Positions 18,066-64,000 of a DNA stretch of 64,000 bases are shown here, piece after piece (position 1 is the first letter of the stretch; every line of letters starts with the position of its first letter). The notes under the pieces are model-generated. The model was given only the letters and a program-made list of their open reading frames with translations. It was not told where the DNA came from and did no database searches. This DNA is from Lacibacter sp. (GTDB lineage: Bacteria; Bacteroidota; Bacteroidia; Chitinophagales; Chitinophagaceae), in assembly GCA_049240625.1 (NCBI GenBank), contig JBMLSG010000004.1, positions 41,351 to 105,350 on the forward strand, given 5' to 3'. The position numbers and the translations under genes were made by a program.

Positions 18066-21005
18066 ATGGCAACAGTGGCAGGAAAATACAAAGGACAGAA
18101 ACAGGATTCTTCACATGGTGATGCAATCGTTGTACAAGGGGCGCGTGTCCATAATTTAAAAAACATCTCGGTCGAGTTTCCTCGAAATCAATTGATTGTT
18201 GTTACAGGTGTTTCCGGAAGCGGCAAATCCTCGTTGACCATTGACACGCTCTATGCCGAAGGCCAAAGACGCTATGCCGAAAGTTTAAGTGCGTATGCAC
18301 GTCAATTCCTCAATCGAATGGATAAGCCGGATGTCGATATGATTAAAGGATTGTGTCCGGCCATTGCAATCGAGCAAAAGGTAATTGCCCGTACTCCCCG
18401 AAGTACGGTTGGGAGCATGACAGAAATTTATGATTATCTACGTTTGTTGTTTGCGCGGGTCGGGAAAACCATTTCTCCCGTTAGTGGAGATGAAGTGAAA
18501 AAAGCCGACGTTCTTGATGTGCTCAATCGGATTCAAAATTTGGAAAAGAATTCCAAGATTTTCTTATTGATTGTTTTTCCATTGCATCCATCACGCAGCC
18601 CTAAAGAGGAGCTGCAACTCTTGTTGCAAAAAGGGTTTACAAGAATCTTGTTTCGGTCTCAGACGGGAGTCGGTAATCAAAAGGTATCCGGGGCAATAAA
18701 GACACAGCGTGCCTCTTCAAAAAGGAAAACGGAATCTGAAGGTGCGAATCAGTATGCCGATGAATTAGTCCGTATAGAAGAGTTGCTGGATCTTTCCGAT
18801 AAAGAATGCGATCAAAAGTTGAAAAATAGTGTTTCGCAAACGATTCCCTATATTTTGATCGACCGTTTTGTGACGAAAGAATTTGATGAAGATGAATTGC
18901 ATCGAATATCCGATTCCGTTGGGACAGCATTTTATGAAGGGGAAGGTGAATTGTATTTAGAAGTGCAATCTGCCGAAGGCGAAAAACAGTTGTTGTCTTT
19001 TTCCAATAAATTCGAAATGGACGGATTGCGTTTTGAAGAGCCGGTTCCCAATCTGTTTTCTTACAACAACCCGTATGGGGCTTGTCCTGTATGTGAAGGG
19101 TTTGGTCAGGTATTGGGGGTCGATGAAAATCTGGTCATTCCGGATAAACGATTAAGTGTTTATGAAGGTGCAGTCGCTCCGTGGAAAGGGGAAAAGTTGG
19201 GGTGGTGGAAAGACCAGTTCCTGAAAGGTGCTGCCAAAGCCGGCTTCCCGGTTCATAAATCGATCCAGAATTTAACGGAACAGCAAAAAACACAATTGTG
19301 GAAAGGTGTAGGTAATGCACTGGGAATCGATGATTTCTTTAAAGAAGTTGAATCCAATTTATACAAAGTGCAGTATCGCGTTTTGCTGAGCCGCTATCGT
19401 GGACGTACCACATGTCCGGAATGCAACGGATTCCGTTTGCGAAAAGAGGCGTTATATGTTAAAATCGCGGGTAAGCAAATCGGCGAGTTGTGTGAAATGC
19501 CGGTCAGAGATCTTAAGTTATGGTTCGATGAATTGAGTCTCACGTCCTACGATCAATCTGTTGCAAATCGGATTTTGATTGAAATAAAAAACCGCATTCA
19601 TACTTTGATGCAGGTTGGACTTGGCTATTTAACCATGAGCCGGTTGGCGAATACACTGAGCGGAGGAGAGAGTCAACGAATCCAATTAACCCGATCCCTC
19701 GGAAGCAATCTTACAGATTCACTGTATATATTAGATGAACCTTCCATTGGCCTCCATCCGAGGGATACAGCAAATCTTATTCAGGTTCTTAAGGAACTGA
19801 AAAAACTGGGAAATACCGTGATTGTGGTTGAGCACGATGAACTGATGATGAGGGAAGCTGATCATATTATTGACATGGGCCCATTGGCCAGTCACTTGGG
19901 AGGAGAGGTGATTGCCGCCGGCAACTACAAGGCCATTACAGAAAATCCTGAAAGTTTGACCGGAAGATATCTTTCAGGCGCATTGCAGGTGCATGATTTT
20001 GGGAAGGCCAGGAAGTGGACACAAAGTGTAACGGTACAGGAGGCTTGTCAAAACAATTTAAAACAGCTTGATGTAACGTTTCCGCTCCATGTTTTGTGTG
20101 TGGTTTGTGGCGTAAGCGGAAGCGGTAAAACAACGTTGGTGAAGAATATTTTGTATCCCGCACTTCTGAATTTGAAAGGCGAGTTTACGGTGCGTCCGGG
20201 TTTGCACACGCAGCTTACAGGAGACACCGAAGCCATTGCCCAGGTAGAGCTGATTGATCAAAATCCTATTGGCAAAAGCAGTCGTAGTAACCCGGTAACT
20301 TATATAAAAGCCTATGATGCAATTCGGGAACTGTTTTCGGATCAGCCATTGAGTAAAATCAGAGGGTTTATGCCGAAGCACTTTTCATTCAATGTCGATG
20401 GCGGTCGTTGTGATGCATGTAAAGGAGAAGGCGAACAAGTAATCGAAATGCAGTTTCTGGCGGATGTTCATTTGACTTGCGAAGTATGTGGTGGTAAACG
20501 CTTTAAAGAGGAGGTTCTGGAAGTATTGTACAATGAGAAAAGCATTCATGATGTATTGGAAATGAGTGTCGACGAGGCGCTTCAGTTTTTTTCTTCGGAG
20601 CAGGATCTGGTAAGAAAATTAAATCCTTTGGCAGAAGTAGGTCTGGGCTATATTAAATTAGGGCAGAGTAGTGATACGTTGAGTGGAGGAGAGGCACAAA
20701 GGGTCAAACTGGCGAGCTTTTTAGGGCGTGGATCATCTCAGGGTTCCATACTTTTTATTTTTGATGAGCCTACAACAGGTTTACATTTTCACGATATCAG
20801 TAAACTTTTAAAAAGTTTTCATGCGTTGATTGAAAACGGACATTCGGTACTTGTGATTGAGCATAATACAGAGGTTATCAAGCGTGCCGATTGGTTGATT
20901 GAGTTGGGGCCGGAAGCCGGTGATGGTGGCGGTAAATTGGTATATGAAGGTGTTCCGGGTTCCGTAAAAAAAATAAAGGAAAGTCGCATTGCTCCTTTCC
21001 TTTAA
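18066..21005 (+). CDS. uvrA: Excinuclease ABC subunit A paralogue (UvrA2-like)
   Basis: Two ABC ATPase modules (GVSGSGKS/LSGGESQR/DEPSIG and GVSGSGKT/LSGGEAQR/DEPTTG) with Zn-finger Cys pairs. More divergent than the copy at 48384. Confidence 0.9.
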   Translation: MATVAGKYKGQKQDSSHGDAIVVQGARVHNLKNISVEFPRNQLIVVTGVSGSGKSSLTIDTLYAEGQRRYAESLSAYARQFLNRMDKPDVDMIKGLCPAIAIEQKVIARTPRSTVGSMTEIYDYLRLLFARVGKTISPVSGDEVKKADVLDVLNRIQNLEKNSKIFLLIVFPLHPSRSPKEELQLLLQKGFTRILFRSQTGVGNQKVSGAIKTQRASSKRKTESEGANQYADELVRIEELLDLSDKECDQKLKNSVSQTIPYILIDRFVTKEFDEDELHRISDSVGTAFYEGEGELYLEVQSAEGEKQLLSFSNKFEMDGLRFEEPVPNLFSYNNPYGACPVCEGFGQVLGVDENLVIPDKRLSVYEGAVAPWKGEKLGWWKDQFLKGAAKAGFPVHKSIQNLTEQQKTQLWKGVGNALGIDDFFKEVESNLYKVQYRVLLSRYRGRTTCPECNGFRLRKEALYVKIAGKQIGELCEMPVRDLKLWFDELSLTSYDQSVANRILIEIKNRIHTLMQVGLGYLTMSRLANTLSGGESQRIQLTRSLGSNLTDSLYILDEPSIGLHPRDTANLIQVLKELKKLGNTVIVVEHDELMMREADHIIDMGPLASHLGGEVIAAGNYKAITENPESLTGRYLSGALQVHDFGKARKWTQSVTVQEACQNNLKQLDVTFPLHVLCVVCGVSGSGKTTLVKNILYPALLNLKGEFTVRPGLHTQLTGDTEAIAQVELIDQNPIGKSSRSNPVTYIKAYDAIRELFSDQPLSKIRGFMPKHFSFNVDGGRCDACKGEGEQVIEMQFLADVHLTCEVCGGKRFKEEVLEVLYNEKSIHDVLEMSVDEALQFFSSEQDLVRKLNPLAEVGLGYIKLGQSSDTLSGGEAQRVKLASFLGRGSSQGSILFIFDEPTTGLHFHDISKLLKSFHALIENGHSVLVIEHNTEVIKRADWLIELGPEAGDGGGKLVYEGVPGSVKKIKESRIAPFL

Positions 21006-21438: not shown

Positions 21439-22719
21439 TTATCCCAGTTCAGGGTAAAGAGGGAATTGTTCCATGAATGCGTTAACTTCTTTTCTGATTT
21501 TATCCAACACGGCTTCGTCATCTGCATTCATCAGACTGCGATCAATCACATCCACTACAAAGTCCATATGTTCTTCTTTTAATCCGCGGGTTGTAACGGC
21601 AGCAACACCTGTACGGATCCCGCTCGTCACAAATGCACTTTTGTCATCAAAAGGCACCATGTTTTTGTTGGTCGTAATGTCAGCCTTTCCTAAAACGAGT
21701 TCGGCTTTTTTTCCACTGATATTTTTATTGCGTAAATCAATTAGCATAAGATGGTTGTCGGTACCATTTGAGATCAACTGATAATTCCGTTCTACAAAAG
21801 CTTTGGCCATCGCTTGTGCATTTTTTTGTACTTGCTTGGCATAGATCGTGAAATCATCGGTGAGGATTTCACCGAAGGCGACAGCTTTGGCTGCAATGAC
21901 ATGCTCCAATGGCCCTCCTTGTTGTCCTGGGAAAACAGCCATATCCAGCAAATTGCTCATCATGCGGATATTGCCTTTTACGTCTTTAAGTCCAAAAGGG
22001 TTTTCGAAGTCCTTGTGCATCAAAATAATGCCTCCTCTGGGTCCACGTAATGTTTTGTGCGTAGTGGAAGTTACAAAGTGACAATGTTCAAAAGGAGAGC
22101 TTAATAAATTTTTAGCGATCAATCCCGCAGGGTGAGCCATATCGCATAAAACAAACGCACCCACTTCATCTGCAACTTTGCGGATCCGAACATAATCCCA
22201 GTCGCGGCTGTAAGCACTCGCTCCGCAAATAATGAGTTTGGGTTTTACTTCACGTGCTTTACTTTCCAGCATTTCATAATCAATCAAGCCGGTTTCTTTC
22301 ACCACGCCATAAAAATGTGCCTGGTACAGTTTGCCACTGAAATTCACGGGAGAACCATGGGTCAAATGTCCACCCATGCTGAGGTCAAGTCCCAATATGG
22401 CGTCGCCGGGTTGAATGATTGCATGCATTACAGCCGCATTGGCTTGTGCTCCGCTATGTGGTTGTACATTGGCGTACTCGCAATTGAAAATGGCTTTTAC
22501 ACGGTCAATGGCTAATTGTTCTGTTTGGTCAACAATTTCGCAACCACCGTAATACCTTCTGCCGGGGTATCCTTCGGCATATTTATTGGTTAAAACGCTG
22601 CCCATGGCTTGCATCACTTGAAGCGAAGTGAAATTTTCGGACGCAATCAGTTCAATACCGTGGCGTTGACGTTGTAATTCTTTTTCAATCAGGTCGAAAA
22701 TGGCTGTATCTCTTTGCAT
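21439..22719 (-). CDS. glyA: Serine hydroxymethyltransferase
   Basis: [28 protein letters not shown] and PLP motif [12 protein letters not shown]. Confidence 0.98.
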
Positions 22720-30229: not shown

Positions 30230-31663
30230 ATGACTAAGACAGCTGATCAAGTTTGGAAAAATTGTTTGGCTATCATAAAAGATATTGTGGAATGGCAGCA
30301 TTTTAAAACATGGTTTGAACCGATTACGCCTGTTGAATTAAAAAATAAAATTCTAACCATTCAAGTACCCAGCCAGTTCTTTTTCGAATATCTGGAAGAA
30401 CATTATGTAACCTTACTGGCTAAAACATTGAAAAGGGAATTGGGCAAGGATGCACACCTGGAATATCGTATCATGATGGACAGCGGGAACAAAAACAACA
30501 GGCCTATTACAATGGATGTGCCCGGACAAGGATACAAAACCTATACGAACAATGAAATGGATTTTCCTTTGGTGATTAATAACCCTGTAAAAAATCCGTT
30601 CGTCATTCCCGGACTTAAAAAAGTTCAGATCGATCCTCAGTTAAATCCCAATTATACGTTGGAGACCTTTGTGGAGGGAGAATGCAATCGTGTTGCACGT
30701 CGTGCAGGCAAAACGGTAGCTGATAAGCCGGGAGCAACCTCTTTCAATCCATTGGTTATTTATGGAGGAGTCGGGTTGGGGAAGACCCATCTGGCACAGG
30801 CCGTTGGCAATGAGGTGAAACGGCAACATCCCAACAAAGTAGTGTTGTATGTAAGCAGCGAAAAATTCATCAATCAATTTGTAGATCACAGCCGCAACAA
30901 CGCCATCAATGATTTCATTCATTTTTATCAGTTGATTGATGTTTTAATTATTGATGATGTCCAGTTTTTTAACCGGGCCGAAAAGTCACAAGATGCATTT
31001 TTCGCAATTTTTAACCACTTACATCAAAGCGGTAAACAATTAATTCTTACCTCCGATAAAGCACCCAAAGATCTGGAAGGTGTTCAAGAACGATTGCTGA
31101 GTCGTTTTCGTTGGGGATTAAGTGCCGATTTACAAGTTCCGGATTATGAAACGAGAATTGAGATTCTGGAAAAGAAAATGAAGAACGATGGTCTGGATAT
31201 GCATAAAGATGTTGTAAAATACATCGCGTATAATATCAATACCAATGTTAGGGAATTAGAGGGTGCATTGATTTCATTGCTGGCTCAATCATCCCTGAAT
31301 AAAAAAGAAATTGATCTGGAGCTTGCAAAAAAAGTGCTCAAGAACTTTGTAAAAACTTCATCTAAGGAAATAACAATTGATGCCATTCAAAAAATGGTTT
31401 GCGATTATTTTGATGTTTCCTATGAGAAGTTGTTGCAAAAAACCCGTAAACGCGAAATTGTACAGGCACGTCAAATAACGATGTATCTGGCAAAAACCTT
31501 TACGAAAAACTCGCTCAAGACAATTGGAGAACATTTTGGCGGTCGCGATCATACAACGGTCATACACTCCTGTCAAACAGTTAAGGATTTAATGGATACT
31601 GATAGCTTGTTTAAAGAAAGTGTTCAGGAGCTCCAGCAAAAAGTTCAGTTAGCAGCGATGTAA
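30230..31663 (+). CDS. dnaA: Chromosomal replication initiator DnaA
   Basis: GGVGLGKTHL, IDDVQF, SRFRWGL, NVRELEGAL and GGRDHTTVIHS motifs. Confidence 0.99.
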   Translation: MTKTADQVWKNCLAIIKDIVEWQHFKTWFEPITPVELKNKILTIQVPSQFFFEYLEEHYVTLLAKTLKRELGKDAHLEYRIMMDSGNKNNRPITMDVPGQGYKTYTNNEMDFPLVINNPVKNPFVIPGLKKVQIDPQLNPNYTLETFVEGECNRVARRAGKTVADKPGATSFNPLVIYGGVGLGKTHLAQAVGNEVKRQHPNKVVLYVSSEKFINQFVDHSRNNAINDFIHFYQLIDVLIIDDVQFFNRAEKSQDAFFAIFNHLHQSGKQLILTSDKAPKDLEGVQERLLSRFRWGLSADLQVPDYETRIEILEKKMKNDGLDMHKDVVKYIAYNINTNVRELEGALISLLAQSSLNKKEIDLELAKKVLKNFVKTSSKEITIDAIQKMVCDYFDVSYEKLLQKTRKREIVQARQITMYLAKTFTKNSLKTIGEHFGGRDHTTVIHSCQTVKDLMDTDSLFKESVQELQQKVQLAAM

Positions 31664-48383: not shown

Positions 48384-51215
48384 TTATGACTTCAATTCAG
48401 GGATTAAAAAGCGAGCTGTGTGACTTTCTTTACAACGTGTTAAGTCTTCAGGCGTTCCTTCAAAGAGAATTTGTCCGCCACCATCTCCACCCTCAGGGCC
48501 AAGGTCTATAATGTGATCGGCAACCTTGATAACGTCCATATTGTGTTCAATCACCAAAACCGTATTCCCTCTTTCAACCAATTTGTTGAGTACCTGCAGT
48601 AGCAAATTGATATCCTGGAAATGCAATCCGGTAGTGGGTTCATCTAAAATATAGAATGTTTTTCCGGTGTCTTTTTTCGCAAGTTCTGTAGAAAGTTTTA
48701 CTCTTTGTGCTTCACCACCGCTCAAAGTAACGGCACTTTGTCCCAGTGTAATGTAACCTAAGCCTACTTCCTGCAGTACTTTGATTTTTCTGTACAGGTA
48801 AGGCACCGATTTGAAAAATTCGCAGGCTTCTTCCACCGTCATGTCCAAAACATCCGATATGGATTTGCCTTTATATCGTATTTCAAGTGTTTCGCGGTTG
48901 TAACGTTTGCCGTTGCATTTTTCACAATGAACGTACACGTCGGGCAGGAAATTCATTTCAATCACCCGCATTCCGGCTCCTTCACAAACGGCGCATCTGC
49001 CGGTTTTTACATTGAACGAAAAGCGGCCTGCATTATAACCCCTGATTTTTGCTTCGGGTACAGCAGCAAACAGTTGTCGGATTTCAGTAAAAAATCCGCA
49101 GTAGGTAGCCGGGTTGCTTCTGGGTGTACGACCAATTGGAGACTGATCGATTTCAATTACTTTGTCAATCTGTTCCAGTCCGCTTATGCTTTTGTACGGT
49201 AAGGGAGCTGTTTTGCTTTTATAGCAATGCTGATTGAGAATGGGATAAAGTGTTTCATTGATCAGGGTGCTTTTGCCGCTGCCACTTACACCTGAAACGA
49301 CAATAAATGTACCAAGCGGAAATGTTGCGTTAACACCGCGTAAGTTGTTTCCGGATGCGCCTTTTAAAACCAAGTTCTTTCCGTTTCCTTTTCTGCGTTG
49401 ATCCGGAACAGGTATTGTTTTGGTGCCATTCAGATATTTTGCTGTTTCGCTATCTTGAGTCAGTAGCTGATGTGGAAGTCCGGCTGAAACAACTTTCCCT
49501 CCATGCTTTCCGGCTTTGGGTCCGATGTCAATTAAGTAATCTGCCGCCAGCATGATGTCTTTATCGTGTTCAACGACAATGATACTGTTGCCCAGATTTC
49601 TTAAGTTTTTAAGTGCATCGATCAGCTTTTGATTGTCACGTTGATGTAGTCCAATGCTGGGCTCATCCAAAATGTAGGTAATGCCCCGGAGTTGAGAGCC
49701 TATTTGTGTGGCAAGACGTATTCTCTGGCTTTCTCCTCCGCTTAAAGTACGTGAGGTTCTGTTTAGTGTTAGATAGGAAAGGCCTACGTTGAGTAAAAAT
49801 TGCAATCGTTCCCTGATTTCTTTAAGAATATCTTTTGCAATGAGCGCTTGATTGCGGTTGATTCGCAGCTCAATTCCATCAAACCAGGCAGCGAGATTGT
49901 CGAGATTCATATTCCCCAATTCGGCAATGTTTCTGTCTGCTATTTTAAACCATAAGCTCTCTTTTTTGAGTCGGTCGCCCTGACAGGAATTGCAGGTGGA
50001 AAGCTCCATGAAACCTTCGGCCCAGTTTTGTACGGCTTCGCTCGTGCTGTTATGGAACCAGCGCCGAATTTGATTCACGATGCCTTCAAATGTTTTTTCA
50101 TTTTCAGTAGGCAGATCAGAAAAGTCGGAGTCTCCATGCAGGTCACCTTGTTCGTTTCCGTATAAGAGTAGGTTTTTTGCTTTGTCTGACAGGTTTTCAA
50201 ACGGGGTTTCAAGTGAAAATTTGTGCGTTTTGGAAAGGGAATGTACTTGTTTGAAAAAATAGCTGTCCCGTTCTTCACCCAGCGGTTGAATGGCCCCATC
50301 CTTAATACTCAAACTTTTGTCCGGAACGATCTGTTCCAGCGAAACATGATAAACAGTTCCTAATCCTTTGCATACGGGACAGGCCCCATAGGGTGAATTA
50401 AAGGAAAACGCATTGGGCGAAGGCTCTTCGTAGGAAATGCCTGATTCTTCACACATAAGTTGTTTGGAATAGGAAACGATGGTTCCGTTTTCTGTTTCCA
50501 AAAACATCAATCCTTTTCCTAATTTAAGTGTTTGCTGGATGCTTTGCCGGATGCGGAGTTGAAATTCGTCGCTAACTTTTAAGCGGTCGATCACAATTTC
50601 AATATCATGGATTTTGTATCGGTCAACCTGCATTTTGGGTGTCAGATCTTTGATCTCACCGTCCACACGTACTTTGACAAAACCTTTTTTTCGGATGTCT
50701 TCAAAAAGCTCTCGGTAATGGCCTTTTCGGCCTCTGATGATAGGGGCCAGAATAATGATTTTTTGATCCTGAAAGCGATCGAAAATATTGGATGCAATTT
50801 CTTCTTCGCTCCATTTAACCATTTTTTTGCCGCTGTTATAGGAATAGGCCTCTCCGGCACGGGCAAAAAGCAGTCGCAAGAAATCATATACTTCTGTAAT
50901 GGTGCCAACCGTGGAACGCGGATTTTTTCCGGTTGTTTTTTGTTCAATGGAAATCACCGGTGACAATCCTGTAATCTTGTCAACATCCGGGCGTTCCATG
51001 GAGCCTACAAATTGTCGGGCATAGGCACCAAACGTTTCCATGTAGCGTCTTTGTCCTTCGGCATAAATGGTGTCAAATGCCAGCGAAGATTTTCCGCTAC
51101 CGCTGATTCCGGTAACAACCACCAATTGATTTTTGGGGATGTTGATATCCAGATTTTTGAGATTGTGTTCTCTTGCTCCTGTCACTTCAATAAACTCTTG
51201 CGTATTTCCGTTCAT
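48384..51215 (-). CDS. uvrA: Excinuclease ABC subunit A (canonical)
   Basis: GAREHNLKN, GISGSGKSS, RTLSGGESQR, GRTPRSNPATY, RFSFNVKTGRC and LSGGEAQR motifs. Confidence 0.97.
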   Translation of the reverse strand: MNGNTQEFIEVTGAREHNLKNLDINIPKNQLVVVTGISGSGKSSLAFDTIYAEGQRRYMETFGAYARQFVGSMERPDVDKITGLSPVISIEQKTTGKNPRSTVGTITEVYDFLRLLFARAGEAYSYNSGKKMVKWSEEEIASNIFDRFQDQKIIILAPIIRGRKGHYRELFEDIRKKGFVKVRVDGEIKDLTPKMQVDRYKIHDIEIVIDRLKVSDEFQLRIRQSIQQTLKLGKGLMFLETENGTIVSYSKQLMCEESGISYEEPSPNAFSFNSPYGACPVCKGLGTVYHVSLEQIVPDKSLSIKDGAIQPLGEERDSYFFKQVHSLSKTHKFSLETPFENLSDKAKNLLLYGNEQGDLHGDSDFSDLPTENEKTFEGIVNQIRRWFHNSTSEAVQNWAEGFMELSTCNSCQGDRLKKESLWFKIADRNIAELGNMNLDNLAAWFDGIELRINRNQALIAKDILKEIRERLQFLLNVGLSYLTLNRTSRTLSGGESQRIRLATQIGSQLRGITYILDEPSIGLHQRDNQKLIDALKNLRNLGNSIIVVEHDKDIMLAADYLIDIGPKAGKHGGKVVSAGLPHQLLTQDSETAKYLNGTKTIPVPDQRRKGNGKNLVLKGASGNNLRGVNATFPLGTFIVVSGVSGSGKSTLINETLYPILNQHCYKSKTAPLPYKSISGLEQIDKVIEIDQSPIGRTPRSNPATYCGFFTEIRQLFAAVPEAKIRGYNAGRFSFNVKTGRCAVCEGAGMRVIEMNFLPDVYVHCEKCNGKRYNRETLEIRYKGKSISDVLDMTVEEACEFFKSVPYLYRKIKVLQEVGLGYITLGQSAVTLSGGEAQRVKLSTELAKKDTGKTFYILDEPTTGLHFQDINLLLQVLNKLVERGNTVLVIEHNMDVIKVADHIIDLGPEGGDGGGQILFEGTPEDLTRCKESHTARFLIPELKS

Positions 51216-51344: not shown

Positions 51345-51362
51345 CACCAGTTCTTTAAAATG

Positions 51363-51475
51363 CTTATCGAGAAAGGCAGAGGGTAATGGCCCAACGAAGC
51401 CTTGACAACCTATCCCGTTGTTTGACGGGAAAAGGTGCCAATTCCATCTCCGTCCATAATGCGGGGAAAGATAAG
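51363..51475 (+). ncRNA. SAM-I (S-box) riboswitch
   Basis: P1 cttatc/gataag, GAGA, P2 aaggc/gcctt with kink-turn and pseudoknot bases, CAACC...GGTGCCAATTCC, and P4. Lies upstream of met genes. Confidence 0.92.
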
Positions 51476-51505
51476 TCAGATTCCAGCTTTATACTTCTAT
51501 CGCAG

Positions 51506-55433: not shown

Positions 55434-55525
55434 AGTTGGACCTTTCATTGTCCTGAATGAAACCGGGAATCAACTTGGTTTCGATGCGGGGCATTGGGAG
55501 TTTGGATAATCAGAAAAATATACAC

Positions 55526-56251
55526 ATGAGTCAATCTTCCTTATTGAATCAATTAAGAGAATCATTGGGCAAGGGTTTGGAGGCCGATCTGCAAACGTTA
55601 CAATCAATTTGCCCCGGTGAAACAGTTTTTTCTACCAGTTTTGGGATAGAAGATCAGGTAATTACACACCAGATATTTACGAACAATCTAAATATTCGTG
55701 TATTCACGCTGGACACTGGACGCTTGTTCCCGGAAACCTATTCAACCTGGAATCAAACCAGTGAAAAATACCGGCAACCGATCCATACGTATTATCCAAA
55801 TGCGGATTTACTGCAGGAGTTTGTAACCGCAAAAGGACCGAACAGTTTTTATGACAGCGTAGAGAACAGGAAAATGTGTTGCCATATCCGAAAGGTAGAG
55901 CCACTCAAGAGGGCATTAGTTGGTTTTAAGGTTTGGGTTACCGGAATTCGATCCGAACATTCAGGCAACCGACAGTCTATGGAACAGGTAGAGTGGGATG
56001 AAGCCAATCAAATTATAAAATTTCACCCTCTTTTGCATTGGAATGCCGAAGAAGTTAAGAACTTTGCGTTCCAAAATCAGATACCCTACAATTCCTTGCA
56101 TGATAAAGGTTTTGTAAGTATCGGATGTGCACCTTGTACCAGAGCTGTTCGTCCGGGCGAAGACTTCAGAGCCGGCCGGTGGTGGTGGGAGGATGCATCC
56201 AAGAAAGAGTGCGGCTTGCATGAGCACACAGTATCTGAGAAAAAGGATTAA
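55526..56251 (+). CDS. cysH: Adenosine 5'-phosphosulfate (APS/PAPS) reductase
   Basis: STSFG, LDTGRL, CC pair (MCCHIRKVEPL), CxxC (SIGCAPCT) and ECGLH: the 4Fe-4S APS-reductase type. Confidence 0.93.
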   Translation: MSQSSLLNQLRESLGKGLEADLQTLQSICPGETVFSTSFGIEDQVITHQIFTNNLNIRVFTLDTGRLFPETYSTWNQTSEKYRQPIHTYYPNADLLQEFVTAKGPNSFYDSVENRKMCCHIRKVEPLKRALVGFKVWVTGIRSEHSGNRQSMEQVEWDEANQIIKFHPLLHWNAEEVKNFAFQNQIPYNSLHDKGFVSIGCAPCTRAVRPGEDFRAGRWWWEDASKKECGLHEHTVSEKKD

Positions 56252-56301
56252 TTTTTTATTTATTAAACCTACTGGCATTGTAGACTAAATTGAACGATCA
56301 C

Positions 56302-57210
56302 ATGAGTTCTTATCATTTGAATTACCTGGAGCAACTTGAAGCAGAAAGTATTCACATTTTTCGTGAAGTTGCAGCTCAGTTTGAACGCCCGGCATTGTTA
56401 TTTAGTGGAGGTAAAGACTCCATTACATTGGTACAACTGGCCAAAAAGGCATTTGCTCCCGGCAAAATACCTTTTCCTTTGGTGCATATTGATACCGGCC
56501 ACAATTTTGAAGAAGCTTTGCAATATCGAGATTGGCTGGCAAAAGAGGTCGGCGCAACGTTGATTGTGCGGAAGGTTGAAGATACCATCAAACAACGCAA
56601 CCTAACGGAGCCTAAGGGTAAGTTTGCCAGCAGAAACTGGTTGCAAACCTACACCCTGTTGGATACCATCGAGGAATTTAAGTTTGATGCCTGCATCGGT
56701 GGTGCACGTAGAGATGAAGAAAAAGCCAGAGCAAAAGAACGGATTTTTTCGGTGCGGGATGATTTCGGACAATGGGATCCGAAATTGCAACGTCCCGAAC
56801 TTTGGAATATCTACAACGGACGGATTCACAAAGGTGAAAATGTACGTGTATTCCCAATCAGTAACTGGACTGAACTGGATGTTTGGAATTACATCAAAAC
56901 AGAAGCAATTCCGTTGCCTTCCATTTATTTTTCGCATGAGCGTGAGGTGATTGTACACGAGGGCCAGTTGATTGCGGTTTCTCCATTTATTATGATTGAA
57001 CCAACCGATGTCATTCTTAAAAAGAAGGTGCGCTATCGTACAGTTGGCGATATGACTTGTACAGCTGCTGTTGAAAGTTTGGCTACTACACTTGATGAAG
57101 TTGTTGATGAGATCAAGGCAACCCGAATCAGCGAAAGAGGAGAAACACGAATAGATGATAAAGTAACAGAAGCCGCTATGGAGGATCGTAAAAAAGGCGG
57201 CTATTTCTAA
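56302..57210 (+). CDS. cysD: Sulfate adenylyltransferase subunit 2
   Basis: LEAESIHI, FSGGKDS, GGARRDEEKARAKER and MEDRKKGGYF motifs. Confidence 0.97.
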   Translation: MSSYHLNYLEQLEAESIHIFREVAAQFERPALLFSGGKDSITLVQLAKKAFAPGKIPFPLVHIDTGHNFEEALQYRDWLAKEVGATLIVRKVEDTIKQRNLTEPKGKFASRNWLQTYTLLDTIEEFKFDACIGGARRDEEKARAKERIFSVRDDFGQWDPKLQRPELWNIYNGRIHKGENVRVFPISNWTELDVWNYIKTEAIPLPSIYFSHEREVIVHEGQLIAVSPFIMIEPTDVILKKKVRYRTVGDMTCTAAVESLATTLDEVVDEIKATRISERGETRIDDKVTEAAMEDRKKGGYF

Positions 57211-57258
57211 AAATATTTATTTCGATTTTAATTAACTGACTATTCAATACAAACCAAT

Positions 57259-58500
57259 ATGGACATTTTAAGGTTTATCACCGCAGGTAGTGTAGATGAT
57301 GGAAAAAGTACGCTGATTGGCCGACTTTTATACGACAGTAAAAGTATTTTAGCCGATCAATTGGAAGCAATTGAAAAAAGTACAAAAAACAAAGATAACG
57401 GTGAAATTGATTTGGCACTTTTGACAGACGGACTCCGTGCAGAGAGAGAACAAGGAATTACAATTGATGTTGCTTATCGTTACTTTACGACTCCTCGTCG
57501 AAAATTCATTATCGCCGACGCTCCGGGTCATGTTCAGTATACACGTAACATGATTACCGGTGCCAGCAATGCGAGTTTAATTATTGTTTTGATCGATGCA
57601 CGTCAGGGTGTCGTAGAGCAAACACGCAGACATTCGATCATTGCATCTTTATTGAGAATTCCCCATGTAGTGGTTGCTATCAACAAAATGGATCTCGTTG
57701 ACTTTTCAAAAGAAGTTTTTGATCAAATCGTTGCAGACTACTCAGAAGTTGCCCGTCAGCTGAATCTGAAAGATGTTACCTATATTCCGATGAGCGCTTT
57801 GCAAGGAGACAACATTGTAGATGCTTCAGCGAAAACACCCTGGTATCAGGGAAAACCTTTGTTGGAGTTTTTGGAAACCATCGAATTGACTGAGGATGTG
57901 AACTTAAAAGATCCCCGTTTTCAGGTACAGTATGTGATACGCCCTCAAACAGAAGATTTACACGACTACAGAGGTTATGCCGGAAAAGTAATCAGTGGTG
58001 TTTACAAAAAAGGAGACAAGGTATTGGTGTTGCCACAACAAATTGAAACAACCATTTCAAAACTGGAAATTGCAGGTGTGGAAACAGATGAGATCTTTGC
58101 TCCTCAAAGTGCAGTCATCCATTTACAGGACGATATCGATATCAGCAGAGGTGATTCTATTGTTCGGGCAGATAATGTGCCGGAAACAGCAACTGAAATG
58201 GAAGTATTGTTGTGTTGGCTCGATGATAAACCGCTTCAAACGGGGAATAAATATTTGTTGCAGCACAACAGCAGACTGGTAAAAGCAATGGTTCGTAATC
58301 TGGAATACAAGCTCGATGTAAATACTTTGCAACATCAGCCCGTAGAAGGATCGGTTAAATTAAATGAAGTGGTAAAAGCGACCATTAAAACTGCTGCGCC
58401 TCTGGTGTTTGATCATTATGAGCAATTAAGCAGTAACGGATCGGCCATCTTAGTAGATGAAACCAGCAACAGTACCGTGGCTGCTGTTTTGCTGAGTTGA
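57259..58500 (+). CDS. cysN: Sulfate adenylyltransferase subunit 1 (no APS-kinase domain)
   Basis: GSVDDGKSTLIGRL, REQGITIDVAY, DAPGH and NKMD motifs; 413 aa. Confidence 0.97.
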   Translation: MDILRFITAGSVDDGKSTLIGRLLYDSKSILADQLEAIEKSTKNKDNGEIDLALLTDGLRAEREQGITIDVAYRYFTTPRRKFIIADAPGHVQYTRNMITGASNASLIIVLIDARQGVVEQTRRHSIIASLLRIPHVVVAINKMDLVDFSKEVFDQIVADYSEVARQLNLKDVTYIPMSALQGDNIVDASAKTPWYQGKPLLEFLETIELTEDVNLKDPRFQVQYVIRPQTEDLHDYRGYAGKVISGVYKKGDKVLVLPQQIETTISKLEIAGVETDEIFAPQSAVIHLQDDIDISRGDSIVRADNVPETATEMEVLLCWLDDKPLQTGNKYLLQHNSRLVKAMVRNLEYKLDVNTLQHQPVEGSVKLNEVVKATIKTAAPLVFDHYEQLSSNGSAILVDETSNSTVAAVLLS

Positions 58501-58513
58501 TACAATTAATCCA

Positions 58514-59320
58514 ATGGGTATGTCGCAACAAGGTGGTAAGGGCGCAAAAGTGATTTTGGCAGGTGCAGGTCCCGGTGACGCGGAACTGATTACGATTAAA
58601 TTGCAAAAATATCTGGCTCAAGCCGATGTGATCATAACCGACCGACTCGTAAATCCCGAAATCATTGCTCAGAATGCTCGTAAAGATGTACGGGTCATCA
58701 TGGCCGGAAAGCAGGGATATAACGATGCATCCTTTACGCAAGAGCAGGTGAATGCTGTCATTTTAGAGTCTGCCAAAGAGGGTAAGCTTGTACTGCGTCT
58801 GAAAGGTGGCGATACGGCATTCTTCAGCAATATTCTCGACGAGCTGGAAATGCTCGTTCGTGAAAACCTGCCTTTTGAAATTGTTCCAGGTATAACGGCT
58901 GCTTCAGGAGCTTCGGCTTACACAGGAATCCCTTTGACCGCTCGGGGTTATGCTCAGGGAGTGCAGTTCATCGCATTCAACCCCAATGCGCATTTTTCAG
59001 ACGAGCAGTGGCGTTCACTGGCTATCACCAATGATACCAGGGTTTTTTACATGGGCGTTCAAAACCTGAAATTATTGACCGGGTTCTTGTTGCAATATCA
59101 ATGCAAGCCGGATACACCCCTGGCGGTATTGGAACAAGCGGCAACACCTTTTCAACAAGTACACATATCTACCTTGCAAAATTGTGTAGCCGATTTTGAA
59201 GGAAGGCATTTCAGTTCACCGTCTTTAATTCTTTTGGGAGATGTAGTCAGACTTTATCCCCGTTTTTCATGGTTTCAAATTTCCGGAACCGGAACTGTGT
59301 TTCGGGCCTTGGAAGAATAA
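58514..59320 (+). CDS. cobA: Uroporphyrinogen-III C-methyltransferase (SUMT)
   Basis: GAGPGDAELIT, RLKGGD, VPGITAA, GIPLTARG and YMG motifs; no CysG dehydrogenase/chelatase domain. Confidence 0.93.
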   Translation: MGMSQQGGKGAKVILAGAGPGDAELITIKLQKYLAQADVIITDRLVNPEIIAQNARKDVRVIMAGKQGYNDASFTQEQVNAVILESAKEGKLVLRLKGGDTAFFSNILDELEMLVRENLPFEIVPGITAASGASAYTGIPLTARGYAQGVQFIAFNPNAHFSDEQWRSLAITNDTRVFYMGVQNLKLLTGFLLQYQCKPDTPLAVLEQAATPFQQVHISTLQNCVADFEGRHFSSPSLILLGDVVRLYPRFSWFQISGTGTVFRALEE

Positions 59321-61551: not shown

Positions 61552-61725
61552 AGCCTATAGGGAAAGTAGACTAGAAGCAAAATTACATACTACTGCGTTG
61601 CCAGACAAAAACTTTGAAAAAAATAGGTCTCAGCGGCAGGAATGTTTCAACAAGACCCTGTAATGGTCTAATTTAGAAGAAAATCGGCATAAAGTCTACT
61701 GAAACGGTAGGAAAACTTATCTTTG
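61552..61725. promoter_or_regulatory. Divergent promoters with two inverted operator-like sites
   Basis: TAATTTTG (-) at 61578-61585 and TATCTTTG (+) at 61718-61725. AGTCTACT-N7-TAGG occurs at 61552-61572 (-) and 61693-61713 (+). Confidence 0.6.
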
Positions 61726-61755
61726 CGCCTCCTGTACTGAGGGGGAATCTAAGTT

Positions 61756-62997
61756 ATGTTCAATTATCATACATATTTGGAAGAACGGCTTTTGCAATTG
61801 AAGCAGGATGGAAATTATCGTTATTTCCTCAATGTGAACAAGAGTGCCAGACATTTTCCGAATTTTTACTACGATAAAAACGGCGAAACGAAGCGTGCTG
61901 TAAATTTTTGCAGTAACGATTATCTGGGCATGAGTGTCGAGGAGGAAGTGATTGCGAAATTGTCTTTTGTTGTTCATCAAAGCGGAACCGGAAGCGGAGG
62001 CACCCGCAACATCTCCGGCACAACCAATCATCATCAATCGTTGGAGCAGGCCGTTGCTTCCTGGCATCAAAAAGAAGCAGCACTTGTTTTTGGAGGTGCT
62101 TATCTGGCCAATTTAACGGCTTTGCAAACGCTGGGTCGTCAAATACCGGATCTGATTTTTTTGTCAGATGAACGGAATCATGCTTCGATCATTGAAGGTA
62201 TGCGAAGTACACGCAATCAAAAGTTGATTTTCCGTCACAACGATGTTTTGCATTTGAAAGAATTGCTTCAATCATTACCTCCGGATCAACCCAAACTGAT
62301 TGTGTTTGAATCGGTATACAGCATGAATGGTTCTGTGGCTCCTGTGAAAAAGATTGTGGAACTGGCAAAACAATACAACGCACTCACTTATATTGACGAA
62401 GTACATGCCGTTGGTTTGTACGGAGCAACCGGTGGAGGTATTTGTGAACAGGAATCCTTGCTGGATGCCGTTGATATCATCAATGGTACGCTCGCTAAAG
62501 CGGTAGGAGTGATTGGCGGCTACATTACTGCTTCACAAACAGTGATTGATTTTATCCGCAGTTTTGGAAGCGGGTTTATTTTTACTACATCATTACCCCC
62601 TGCAATTTGTGCGGCTGCCGAAAGAAGCATTCAGCTCATACGTCAGTCGGCACAACAACGAATCTATCTTAAAGGCAACGTTGCCTATTTGCGTTCTTTA
62701 CTAGCCGAAAACGGACTTCCATTTACAGACAATGCATCGCATATAACGCCACTGCCGATAGCGGGTGCTGAGCGGTGTAAAAGGATGGCTGATCTGCTGC
62801 TCCGCAACCATGGCGTCTATGTACAACCTGTAAATTTCCCCACTGTACCCGTAGGGGAAGAGTGTTTAAGGATCATTGTTACATCCAGGCACACACGGGA
62901 ACAGATTGTGCATCTTGTAAAAAGCTTAAAACAAATCAGAAGTGAAATCAATTCGGATTATTTGCCGGAAGAGCCGTCTCAGTCTGTTACAGGCTGA
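61756..62997 (+). CDS. hemA: 5-aminolevulinate synthase (Shemin/C4 pathway)
   Basis: ALAS-type motifs [55 protein letters not shown] (PLP Lys), [14 protein letters not shown] and [11 protein letters not shown]. hemA here means the ALAS sense, not glutamyl-tRNA reductase. Confidence 0.92.
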
Positions 62998-64000
62998 GTT
63001 GGTAAAACAACGGATACTCCTTGTAGCGCCGGATGCCGAAGTGATAATCATCGGGCGAAGCAGTAAAGGTGACCGGGAATTGTCGGTGCCCCTATCTGTA
63101 TTGGATGGAAGTGATTTTTTTACGGAAGAAATATTTGCTGCTCTTCAAAACGGCGAGGCGGATATCGCGGTTCATTCGTTGAAAGATATGAGCGCCCGTC
63201 ATTTTTTTAGTCATACAGCATTTGCAACTCCGGACCGTGAAGATTTGCGCGATGTGGCAATTTTTAATCCGGACATTGTTTCAAAGATTGAATCAGGAGC
63301 TACTTTAATTATAGGAACCTCTTCTCCCCGGCGCGAAGAGATGGCTGTACGGTTTTTGAAAAAAGCACTGCCGCAGCTCGGTCGTGAAATTCAAATAGAA
63401 ACCCGACCCATTCGTGGAAATGTTGAAAGACGATTACAATTGCTTGAAAGCGGTGCTTACGACGCAACAATTTTAGCAACTGCCGGCCTCAACCGTTTGC
63501 TGGGTAGTTCTGAAGACGCACCGGGAGTACGGGCACTGCTGAAAGACAAGAAATACATGTTGTTGCCATTGGTTGAATGCGTACCTGCTCCCTGCCAGGG
63601 TATTATTGTTGCCGAGGCCGACCCCGCAAATCAGGAAGCGGTTGCCATACTTTCAAAGATCAATGATGAACGTGTTTGGAAGGAAGCGATTTCCGAAAAA
63701 CAAAAAGGATCTGAATTTGGTGCAGGCTGCCTTCAAAAATTTGGCGTTGCAACATTGAAAACCAGGCACACGGCCCATCTTTATGCAGCAGGTGTCGACA
63801 GCAATGGCCGTGAATTCAGTGCATGGTCCGGCTTGCCTGAATTTTCTTACGAAGGAAAAAACTTCTTCTCTTCTACAGATTACATGCGCAACTTTTTTCA
63901 ATACCGTTGGGAGCAGGCGTTACCGGCTTTGAATGCACCGGTTGTTTTTGTTGCCAATTACAAAGCCTTGCAGCAACAGGGCTTGAAAGAGTTGTTGCAA
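62942..64000 (+). CDS. hemC: Hydroxymethylbilane synthase HemC, extended C-terminus (3' partial)
   Basis: Translated by hand from the GTG at 62942, open for 353 codons to the window end. [35 protein letters not shown] and cofactor Cys in GAGC are present. Absent from the ORF track. Confidence 0.9.

Follow-up and report, generated by a model that had tools for sequence, protein, structure and literature searches.

A 64-kb stretch of a Lacibacter sp. contig (JBMLSG010000004.1, positions 41,351 to 105,350; hereafter the window, at its full length) carries a gene for 5-aminolevulinate synthase (ALAS), the pyridoxal-phosphate (PLP)-dependent enzyme that forms 5-aminolevulinate (ALA) from glycine and succinyl-CoA. 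This Shemin pathway has been described for alphaproteobacteria and most non-plant eukaryotes, with the C5 pathway in all other bacteria (Nat Commun 2024, PMC11480375), and a later review names Alphaproteobacteria as the sole bacteria with ALAS (Chem Rev 2026, PMC13564367). The enzyme described here is an orthodox one in an unexpected phylum, the Bacteroidota, and in an unusual and informative genomic setting. The explanation that we favor, with a probability of roughly 85% for the whole, is that this ALAS heads a siroheme operon, belongs to a sulfate-assimilation regulon, has probably replaced the C5 route and is an old resident of its genome.

The gene as such is already known, since both JGI and NCBI name it correctly; the initial annotation, made from the letters of the window, had suspected that such automated calls exist. 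What is new here is the conserved ALAS operon with a complete predicted route from glycine to siroheme, the operator-like palindrome that this operon has in common with sulfate-assimilation genes, and the natural fusions of ALAS to HemC-HemD (HemCD). In the searchable literature, whose coverage leaves out subscription journals, we found no description of a Bacteroidota ALAS and no paper joining 'aminolevulinate synthase' with 'Chitinophagaceae'.

Identity of the ALAS gene

The open reading frame (ORF) on which the analysis centers is present where the initial annotation had placed it:

61756..62997, + strand: ALAS (alaS/hemA-type; PLP-dependent alpha-oxoamine synthase), 413 amino acids (aa), ATG to TGA; assigned by TIGR01821, PDB matches and residues

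Judged by its sequence, this ORF is a genuine, orthodox ALAS. It scores 517.4 bits against the NCBIfam ALAS equivalog TIGR01821 (EC 2.3.1.37; cutoff 338.55; E = 2e-155; residues 2-399), whereas the models of the sister families all stay under their own cutoffs (BioF 332 vs 426, KBL 309 vs 460, SPT 268 vs 500). The five top matches in a PDB sequence search are ALAS (7x98, Rhodobacter capsulatus 2bwn, human ALAS2, yeast Hem1), all of them end-to-end with E = 1e-113 to 1e-100, and the first other alpha-oxoamine synthase follows at E = 1e-63. Identity over the full length is 46-47% to 2bwn and 7x98; in global alignment it reaches 46.7% for R. capsulatus ALAS, 42.6-43.7% for human and yeast ALAS, and 31-32% for E. 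coli BioF and Kbl. The Pfam domain is Aminotran_1_2. In a neighbor-joining tree (simple distance correction, 391 columns, 200 bootstraps) ALAS separates from the outgroups, E. coli BioF and Kbl, in 200/200 bootstraps, and SPT, which was compared by hidden Markov model (HMM) and PDB scores only, is set apart by these. Clustering with BioF, KBL or SPT, the outcome that the initial annotation had named as speaking against an ALAS, was thus not found.

The motifs listed in that annotation are all in place: GNYR (aa 19-22), GGTRNISGT (aa 81-89), SMNG (aa 189-192), GTLAK (aa 244-248), PTVP (aa 362-365) and LR, within LRI (aa 371-373). Arg22 corresponds to R. capsulatus Arg21, Thr83 lies within GGTRNISGT and Lys248 within GTLAK. 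We checked 14 catalytic and specificity positions, in R. capsulatus numbering, in an alignment of 86 sequences including 35 members of the Bacteroidota clade. All 14 (R21, N54, T83, N85, S137, H142, E185, S189, D214, H217, T245, K248, T365, R374) are intact in the window ALAS, and each is kept in 34-35 of the 35 clade members. The PLP Schiff-base lysine K248 and the cofactor ligands D214, H217, H142, S189 and T245 are found in the window enzyme and throughout the clade (35/35); the residues for the succinyl-CoA carboxylate and for specificity (R22, T83, N85) and the carboxylate-binding Arg (R374, which is R373 in the window enzyme) are present as well. In the same alignment E. coli BioF and Kbl deviate at T83 and N85, and Kbl additionally at R21.

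The single deviation that had been pointed out, SMNG in place of SMDG, is real and gives no cause for concern. Asn is the norm of the clade at this position (29/35, with Ser or Ala in the remainder), and it is also found in alphaproteobacterial ALAS, in a sample skewed towards it by the use of FESVYSMN among the scan patterns. The Asp is dispensable for ALAS activity, since yeast Hem1, a crystallized and functional ALAS, has Ala there (SMAGSVA vs SMNGSVA in the window). With this set of residues, the window enzyme would condense glycine with succinyl-CoA on PLP to give ALA, with the Schiff base formed at Lys248 and the succinyl carboxylate gripped by Arg22 and Thr83. The gene is under purifying selection, as indicated by a dN/dS of 0.05 against its orthologue on the Chitinophagaceae contig L001 (96% aa identity).

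The operon, the HemC-HemD fusion and the candidate operator

The neighborhood of ALAS in the window comprises the following genes:

62942..64000, + strand: HemC-HemD fusion, 5' 353 codons of 508 aa; GTG start; runs beyond the window; TIGR00212
59374..61488, - strand: siroheme-dependent sulfite/nitrite reductase hemoprotein (NirA/Sir, 704 aa), divergent from ALAS; NCBIfam NirA-family/sulfite reductase; Pfam NIR_SIR and two NIR_SIR_ferr
58514..59320, + strand: cobA, uroporphyrinogen-III C-methyltransferase (SUMT), first siroheme-branch enzyme; TIGR01469, 225 bits vs cutoff 185
55457..58500, + strand: cysH (55457-56251), cysD (56290-57210) and cysN (57259-58500), sulfate activation and reduction; NCBIfam matches over cutoffs

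The adjacent hemC reported in the initial annotation is real (TIGR00212, 171.9 bits vs cutoff 164). Its frame opens past a stop at 62927-62929, and it overlaps the 3' end of ALAS by 56 nt, because the GTG at 62942 is its only possible start. Evidence for the proposed role in tetrapyrrole synthesis comes from hemC and, with greater weight, from the complete operon. Its order, ALAS, HemC-HemD, hemB, CysG-N(::TauE), recurs in almost all Bacteroidota loci whose flank is long enough, usually with stop/start overlaps. This order was confirmed in Lacibacter and in a contig of the same population (L090; 98% nucleotide identity to the window). The operon hemB (porphobilinogen synthase) scores 344 bits against NF006762 (cutoff 297), and the CysG-N/Met8-type domain (precorrin-2 dehydrogenase/sirohydrochlorin ferrochelatase; NAD_binding_7 and Sirohm_synth_M) scores 111 bits against TIGR01470 (cutoff 62). 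In most loci a TauE/SafE membrane domain is fused to this CysG-N domain, the TauE part being undetected in four loci. TauE/SafE is a family annotated as sulfite exporters, an odd partner for a cofactor-synthesis enzyme.

With ALAS, HemB, HemC, HemD, CobA and CysG-N, the locus is predicted to encode each step from glycine and succinyl-CoA to siroheme, adjoining a reductase that uses siroheme; as the whole trunk (ALAS, HemB, HemC-HemD) is included, it would be self-sufficient from glycine. In the proposed scheme ALAS leads a translationally coupled operon (ALAS, HemC-HemD, HemB, CysG-N::TauE) which, together with the adjacent cobA, would produce siroheme. The sulfite reductase that has siroheme as its cofactor is transcribed in the opposite direction from the intergenic region that precedes ALAS. 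The genes cysH, cysD and cysN are syntenic with ALAS in most Bacteroidota loci. Two architectures are seen. In type 1, represented by the window, the 704-aa reductase is divergent from ALAS, and its orthologues adjoin ALAS at 77-97% identity; in type 2 the genes form a single co-directional string, cobA-cysJ-cysI-ALAS-hemCD-hemB-cysG_N. Among the sampled alphaproteobacterial-type ALAS loci, none of these neighbors lies within 10 kb, except in three loci with hemC or hemB near ALAS, two of them alphaproteobacterial and one labelled Chloroflexota.

Some variants of the reductase neighborhood may be added. In the type-2 locus L004 (6597-9983) a CysJ flavoprotein and a 552-aa CysI hemoprotein are co-directional with ALAS. 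The 704-aa NirA/Sir protein is ~25% identical to the CysI hemoprotein and has a C-terminal extension with a weak HEPN match. An outlier Chitinophagaceae locus (L026, 7369-11275) has ALAS without hemCD or hemB; the neighbors are instead a gene for a NIR_SIR_ferr/rubredoxin protein and one that is MobA-like, and the setting is possibly nitrate/nitrite assimilation, again siroheme-related.

Fused proteins of the clade and its relatives lie on contigs outside the window:

L001 3504-5030: full-length HemC-HemD fusion
L001 6080-7573, L087 12568-14067 and L090 5483-6964: CysG-N::TauE fusions
L092 8001-10754: ALAS::HemCD fusion P0253, 917 aa, inside a Bacteroidota type-2 locus
L091 8001-10685: ALAS::HemCD fusion P0331, 894 aa, in a low-GC (34%) Rickettsiales-like genome

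The HemC proteins of the clade are 490-545 aa long, with a Pfam match limited to the first ~230 residues, and several of them are called 'hypothetical protein' by NCBI. A full-length orthologue (P0132, 99% identity) has an AlphaFold model (predicted local distance difference test score, pLDDT, 88.5) with a complete three-domain hydroxymethylbilane synthase (HMBS) in the first ~300 residues; Foldseek matches of this part to HMBS structures have E ~1e-18 and target-normalized template-modeling (TM) scores of 0.65-0.75. Since the full-length model matched only HMBS in the PDB, and only for its N-terminal part, the C-terminal domain was folded separately. Modeled alone (209 aa, pLDDT 90), it has UroS/HemD structures from five species as its top 11 Foldseek matches (E = 8e-7 to 2e-4, probability 1.00), followed by a sharp drop to E = 6e-3. 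The structural model therefore identifies the extension as a very divergent uroporphyrinogen-III synthase domain, and the long HemC as a HemC-HemD fusion.

In-frame ALAS::HemC-HemD single polypeptides occur within the Bacteroidota clade itself (P0253, and P0254 from Saprospiraceae); P0317 is a further fusion, and P0029, with ALAS and porphobilinogen-deaminase Pfam domains, is probably another. Such fusions are Rosetta-stone evidence that the ALAS of this clade works with the tetrapyrrole trunk. In the Rickettsiales-like genome, whose nearest named relative is 'Candidatus Deianiraeaceae', the genes after ALAS::HemCD are hemB, hemE and one for a HemN-like radical-SAM protein. A colinear alignment of the HemCD proteins of the two lineages spans 490 residues and takes in the HemD part (27% identity, E = 9e-41), so the arrangement of HemC-HemD followed by hemB may be ancestral to both. 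The HemC part, however, is no closer between them than to other alphaproteobacterial HemC (30-32%); a specific kinship of the two HemCD types was therefore not retained, the architecture being common to both, and a transfer of the block as a whole is a hypothesis.

The 267 nt that separate the reductase from ALAS contain a candidate operator and a putative promoter element:

61694..61710, + strand: operator-like palindrome GTCTAC-N7-GTAG (AAGTCTAC-N7-GTAGGAAA), in the reductase/ALAS spacer
61718..61725, + strand: Bacteroidota-type -7 box TATCTTTG (TAnnTTTG), 38 nt before the ALAS ATG and 7 nt past the palindrome
56269..56285, - strand: second palindrome copy (GTCTACAATGCCAGTAG), in the 38-nt cysH-cysD spacer
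55975-55991, + strand: third palindrome copy, inside cysH, which may be due to chance

The core GTCTAY-N7-GTAG is observed three times in the window vs 0.03 expected. The family consensus is A-GTCTAY-N6-R-GTAG-R, with AAGTCTAC-N7-GTAGACTT as its perfect form, and some sites are perfect 8+8 palindromes, for example AAGTCTAC-tgtaaaa-GTAGACTT in L004. The Bacteroidota loci (675 kb) contain 53 unique sites, with many in L001-L055, and the other ALAS loci (813 kb) contain none. The sites precede ALAS, sulfite reductase (sir), cysD, cobA and the gene after the TauE fusion, and the position before cysD is the same in L003, L008 and L010. The TAnnTTTG box, which we take to be the Bacteroidetes promoter -7 consensus, recurs at the corresponding position in 11 of the 14 loci whose sir is divergent, and TATCTTTG is presumably the promoter of the ALAS operon.

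An RNA leader or riboswitch before ALAS was considered and dropped. The region 61680-61760 folds no better than its shuffles (z = -0.8), and Rfam has no match before ALAS, the sole cis-regulatory match in the window being an S-adenosylmethionine (SAM) riboswitch ahead of metY; for these two reasons the palindrome is read as a DNA site. It would be the operator of a dimeric regulator, and because it is common to cysD, sulfite reductase and cobA, it suggests that the ALAS operon belongs to a sulfate-assimilation regulon.

Distribution, origin and alternative explanations

The best 120 matches to the window ALAS in a collection of 5.8 billion proteins (one per 90%-identity cluster) are 64-99% identical to it. 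Many of them are already called '5-aminolevulinate synthase' by JGI/NCBI, and the named ones are Chitinophagaceae or 'Bacteroidetes bacterium'. A genome scan found clade ALAS (58-96% identity) in ~36 assemblies labelled Chitinophagaceae, Chitinophagales, Saprospiraceae, Cyclobacteriaceae, Lacibacter, Flavipsychrobacter or Taibaiella, followed by alphaproteobacterial ALAS at 43-52%. The carriers include the isolate chromosome of Lacibacter sp. MH-610, in which the cluster is syntenic. The window population is an uncultured one from a lake or freshwater, with relatives at 97-98% DNA identity (contigs L089 and L090) and, as nearest assembly, a Chitinophagaceae metagenome-assembled genome (MAG; contig L001, 92% nucleotide identity); together with the synteny in MH-610 this bears out the assignment of the host to Bacteroidota. 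Public labels look wrong on three carriers of Chitinophagaceae-type ALAS/HemCD, L021 ('Bosea thiooxidans' MAG), L009 ('Chitinophaga pinensis' MAG) and P0205 ('Pseudomonadota bacterium'), which suggests mis-binned or mis-named MAGs.

The Bacteroidota ALAS clade is monophyletic in 200/200 bootstraps and lies outside every sampled alphaproteobacterial subgroup. Its monophyly and the topology relative to the outgroups held when 108 unbiased representatives with a full domain, taken from an exhaustive HMMER search over 1.84 billion cluster representatives, were included. In this search the clade condenses to a few 50%-identity clusters; further out, ALAS of bacterial and eukaryotic length interleave at 43-49% identity, so the clade is about equidistant from alphaproteobacterial and eukaryotic enzymes. 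Synonymous sites of ALAS are saturated between genera, and synteny extends across families, which indicates an old clade. We thus infer that ALAS has long resided in Chitinophagales-type Bacteroidota, passed on vertically, and is not a recent import. Of the initial proposal of a laterally acquired, now integrated gene, the integration stands: codon usage is native, the setting is core chromosome, and no mobile-element genes were found among the window ORFs examined. Lateral acquisition fits the patchy distribution and may have occurred; the clade is deep and lies outside the sampled alphaproteobacterial groups. A viral origin was also dropped, as a scan of viral contigs with query-derived peptide patterns confirmed no relative of the window ALAS.

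ALAS of the alphaproteobacterial type (45-47% identity to the window enzyme) was also seen under other labels, in a gamma proteobacterium (L18; L079), a Chloroflexota MAG (L080) and a Pseudobdellovibrionaceae MAG (L071). The second of these lies near hemC and hemB and clusters with a Roseobacter sequence. The three could be sporadic transfers or binning errors.

Three alternatives concern what the gene is and whether it belongs to its contig. A different alpha-oxoamine synthase (BioF, KBL, SPT or similar) mis-scored as ALAS would have the same fold and the same Aminotran_1_2 domain, and 31-32% identity to E. coli BioF and Kbl is in keeping with it; the sub-cutoff scores of every sister-family model, the 100% bootstrap split from E. 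coli BioF and Kbl, the ALAS-specific Thr83, Asn85 and Arg21 at which BioF or Kbl deviate, and the tetrapyrrole enzymes found as operon partners and as in-frame HemC fusions effectively refute this highly improbable reading. The cyclising ALAS paralogues (cALAS) of actinomycetes, which make the C5N (2-amino-3-hydroxycyclopent-2-enone) unit of secondary metabolites, are the best-documented bacterial ALAS beyond Alphaproteobacteria, and are marked by T83S and T365S (PMC4525017). The window ALAS and all 35 clade members have Thr at both positions, so the non-cyclising character proposed in the initial annotation holds; with hemCD, hemB, cobA and cysG_N as neighbors and no acyl-CoA ligase, amide synthase or polyketide synthase nearby, there is next to no room for a cyclising enzyme, which residues and gene context effectively refute. 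An equally negligible chance is left to an assembly or binning artefact that joined an alphaproteobacterial gene to a Bacteroidota contig. The metagenome-assembled origin of the window population would allow it, as would the clearly wrong labels of some MAGs in the clade, such as the 'Bosea thiooxidans' one. It is refuted by the junctions on either side of ALAS, which are repeated in >30 independent assemblies including the MH-610 isolate chromosome and thereby rule out a chimeric contig, and by the tiling of the region by independent lake metagenome contigs. The gene has, moreover, a Bacteroidota-type promoter box, no more than 43-52% identity to any alphaproteobacterial ALAS and a native composition (GC 0.44; z = -0.08 for GC at third codon positions; z = -2.0 for the codon-usage distance to the window average, closer than most genes), and it lies in a window of core chromosomal genes (dnaA, ftsZ with a cell-wall cluster, two uvrA, glyA, aspS, recN and met/cys genes).

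The remaining alternative concerns the role of ALAS within the cell. In our preferred reading it would supply ALA for all tetrapyrroles, heme included, instead of the C5 (GluTR/HemL) route. We lean towards such a general role in the carriers, because the ALAS operon encodes the full set of trunk enzymes (HemB, HemC, HemD) and because the Rickettsiales-like locus L091 places ALAS::HemCD with hemB, hemE and the HemN-like gene. An E. coli GluTR probe (tblastn) had no match in the 64-kb window or within 10 kb on either side of ALAS in 80 loci, and a HemL probe of the same sequences gave only weak (~25%) class-III aminotransferase matches in three alphaproteobacterial loci. Alternatively, the operon could be a siroheme module dedicated to sulfate assimilation, with a C5 route encoded elsewhere feeding heme. 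Position and the common palindrome do tie ALAS to sulfur-assimilation genes, in type-2 loci it lies inside the cysJI operon, and the C5 genes were searched for locally, in the window and the ALAS loci. However, the heme branch also needs HemB, HemC and HemD, for which a second trunk set would be unusual, and the Rickettsiales-like relative has its ALAS::HemCD-hemB block in a heme operon. We therefore regard dual pathways as unlikely, though as a competitor to be taken seriously.

Several points count against the general role of ALAS and the other parts of the preferred reading. The GluTR and HemL searches covered a small share of each genome, namely the window and the 10-kb flanks. The case for the candidate operator consists of conservation and enrichment. 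Three lake metatranscriptomes, from the study whose metagenomes contain the locus, had no contig on it, a null result that carries no information, given the low depth of the organism. The window HemC passes its model narrowly. The Pfam family HEM4 stays under its gathering score on the HemCD C-terminal domain (best E = 0.001; 15 bits vs cutoff 27.5 for the first member, with a hint in 9 of 17 members), and a profile of this domain had no match among PDB sequences, so the HemD assignment depends on the predicted fold. Finally, neighbor-joining trees with a simple distance correction do not resolve the deep nodes of ALAS.

A bolder version of the preferred reading is possible, although we hold it doubtful as a whole: Chitinophagales and some Cytophagales may have dropped the C5 route and make all tetrapyrroles from glycine via the ALAS/HemC-HemD/HemB operon, under a previously undescribed palindromic operator of a sulfur regulon, and the ALAS-HemCD-HemB block may have moved between phyla as a unit. 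If so, the history of ALAS would be more than a birth in Alphaproteobacteria and a passage to mitochondria.

Relation to known systems and neighboring features

The window enzyme resembles the R. capsulatus ALAS (HemA; 2BWN) and other alphaproteobacterial ALAS (7X98) in being a colinear, single-domain protein of ~400 aa with all active-site residues kept and with identical numbering at Thr83 and Lys248. It differs from them in its phylum, in the Asn for Asp of SMDG, and in its place at the head of a hemCD-hemB-cysG_N operon inside a sulfate-assimilation locus; the sampled alphaproteobacterial genes stand alone. The mitochondrial enzymes (yeast Hem1, 5TXR; human ALAS2, 5QQQ) are at about the same distance (43-44% identity), and yeast Hem1 likewise lacks the SMDG Asp; in contrast to eukaryotic ALAS, the window protein has no N-terminal presequence, C-terminal extension or yeast-type internal insertion. 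With the actinomycete cALAS, such as that of the asukamycin pathway (PMC4525017), it has in common that it is a bacterial member of the family beyond Alphaproteobacteria, but cALAS has Ser where it keeps Thr83 and Thr365, and belongs to a C5N natural-product cluster instead of primary tetrapyrrole metabolism. Phage vAlaS, ~55% identical to Pelagibacteraceae enzymes (PMC11480375), is another ALAS outside the textbook distribution. The placing of cobA/SUMT and a CysG-N-type enzyme beside sulfite reductase and cysH/D/N recalls E. coli cysG with cysJIH and Bacillus sirABC; unlike these, the window-type locus adds the whole trunk (ALAS, HemB, HemC-HemD), and the CysG-N domain of the clade is fused to a TauE-family membrane protein.

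The existence of a large Bacteroidota ALAS clade contradicts the statement that ALAS is limited to Alphaproteobacteria among bacteria. The carrier families, Chitinophagaceae, Saprospiraceae and Cyclobacteriaceae, are abundant freshwater and soil bacteria, and their genomes could be mis-scored by pathway-reconstruction tools that presume GluTR/HemL outside Alphaproteobacteria. A corresponding caveat is needed where ALAS is taken to mark alphaproteobacterial or mitochondrial ancestry. The compact locus offers a natural, self-contained module from glycine to siroheme, with HemC-HemD, CysG-N::TauE and a candidate sulfur-responsive operator, for study or exploitation. Labelling and genetic tests are feasible in at least one cultured carrier, Lacibacter sp. 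MH-610.

Other features of the window are recorded here for completeness. The SAM riboswitch (Rfam RF00162, 74 bits; 51361-51477, + strand) is found 250 nt ahead of metY, the gene for O-acetylhomoserine sulfhydrylase; metX and hom come next. The glyA gene (21439-22719, - strand) encodes serine hydroxymethyltransferase, the glycine source of the cell. Two UvrA-family paralogues are present, at 18066-21005 (+ strand) and 48384-51215 (- strand). The dnaA gene (30230-31663, + strand), directly followed by two tRNA genes, is located ~30 kb upstream of the ALAS operon, and the cumulative GC skew climbs nearly monotonically across the window, with no switch at dnaA.

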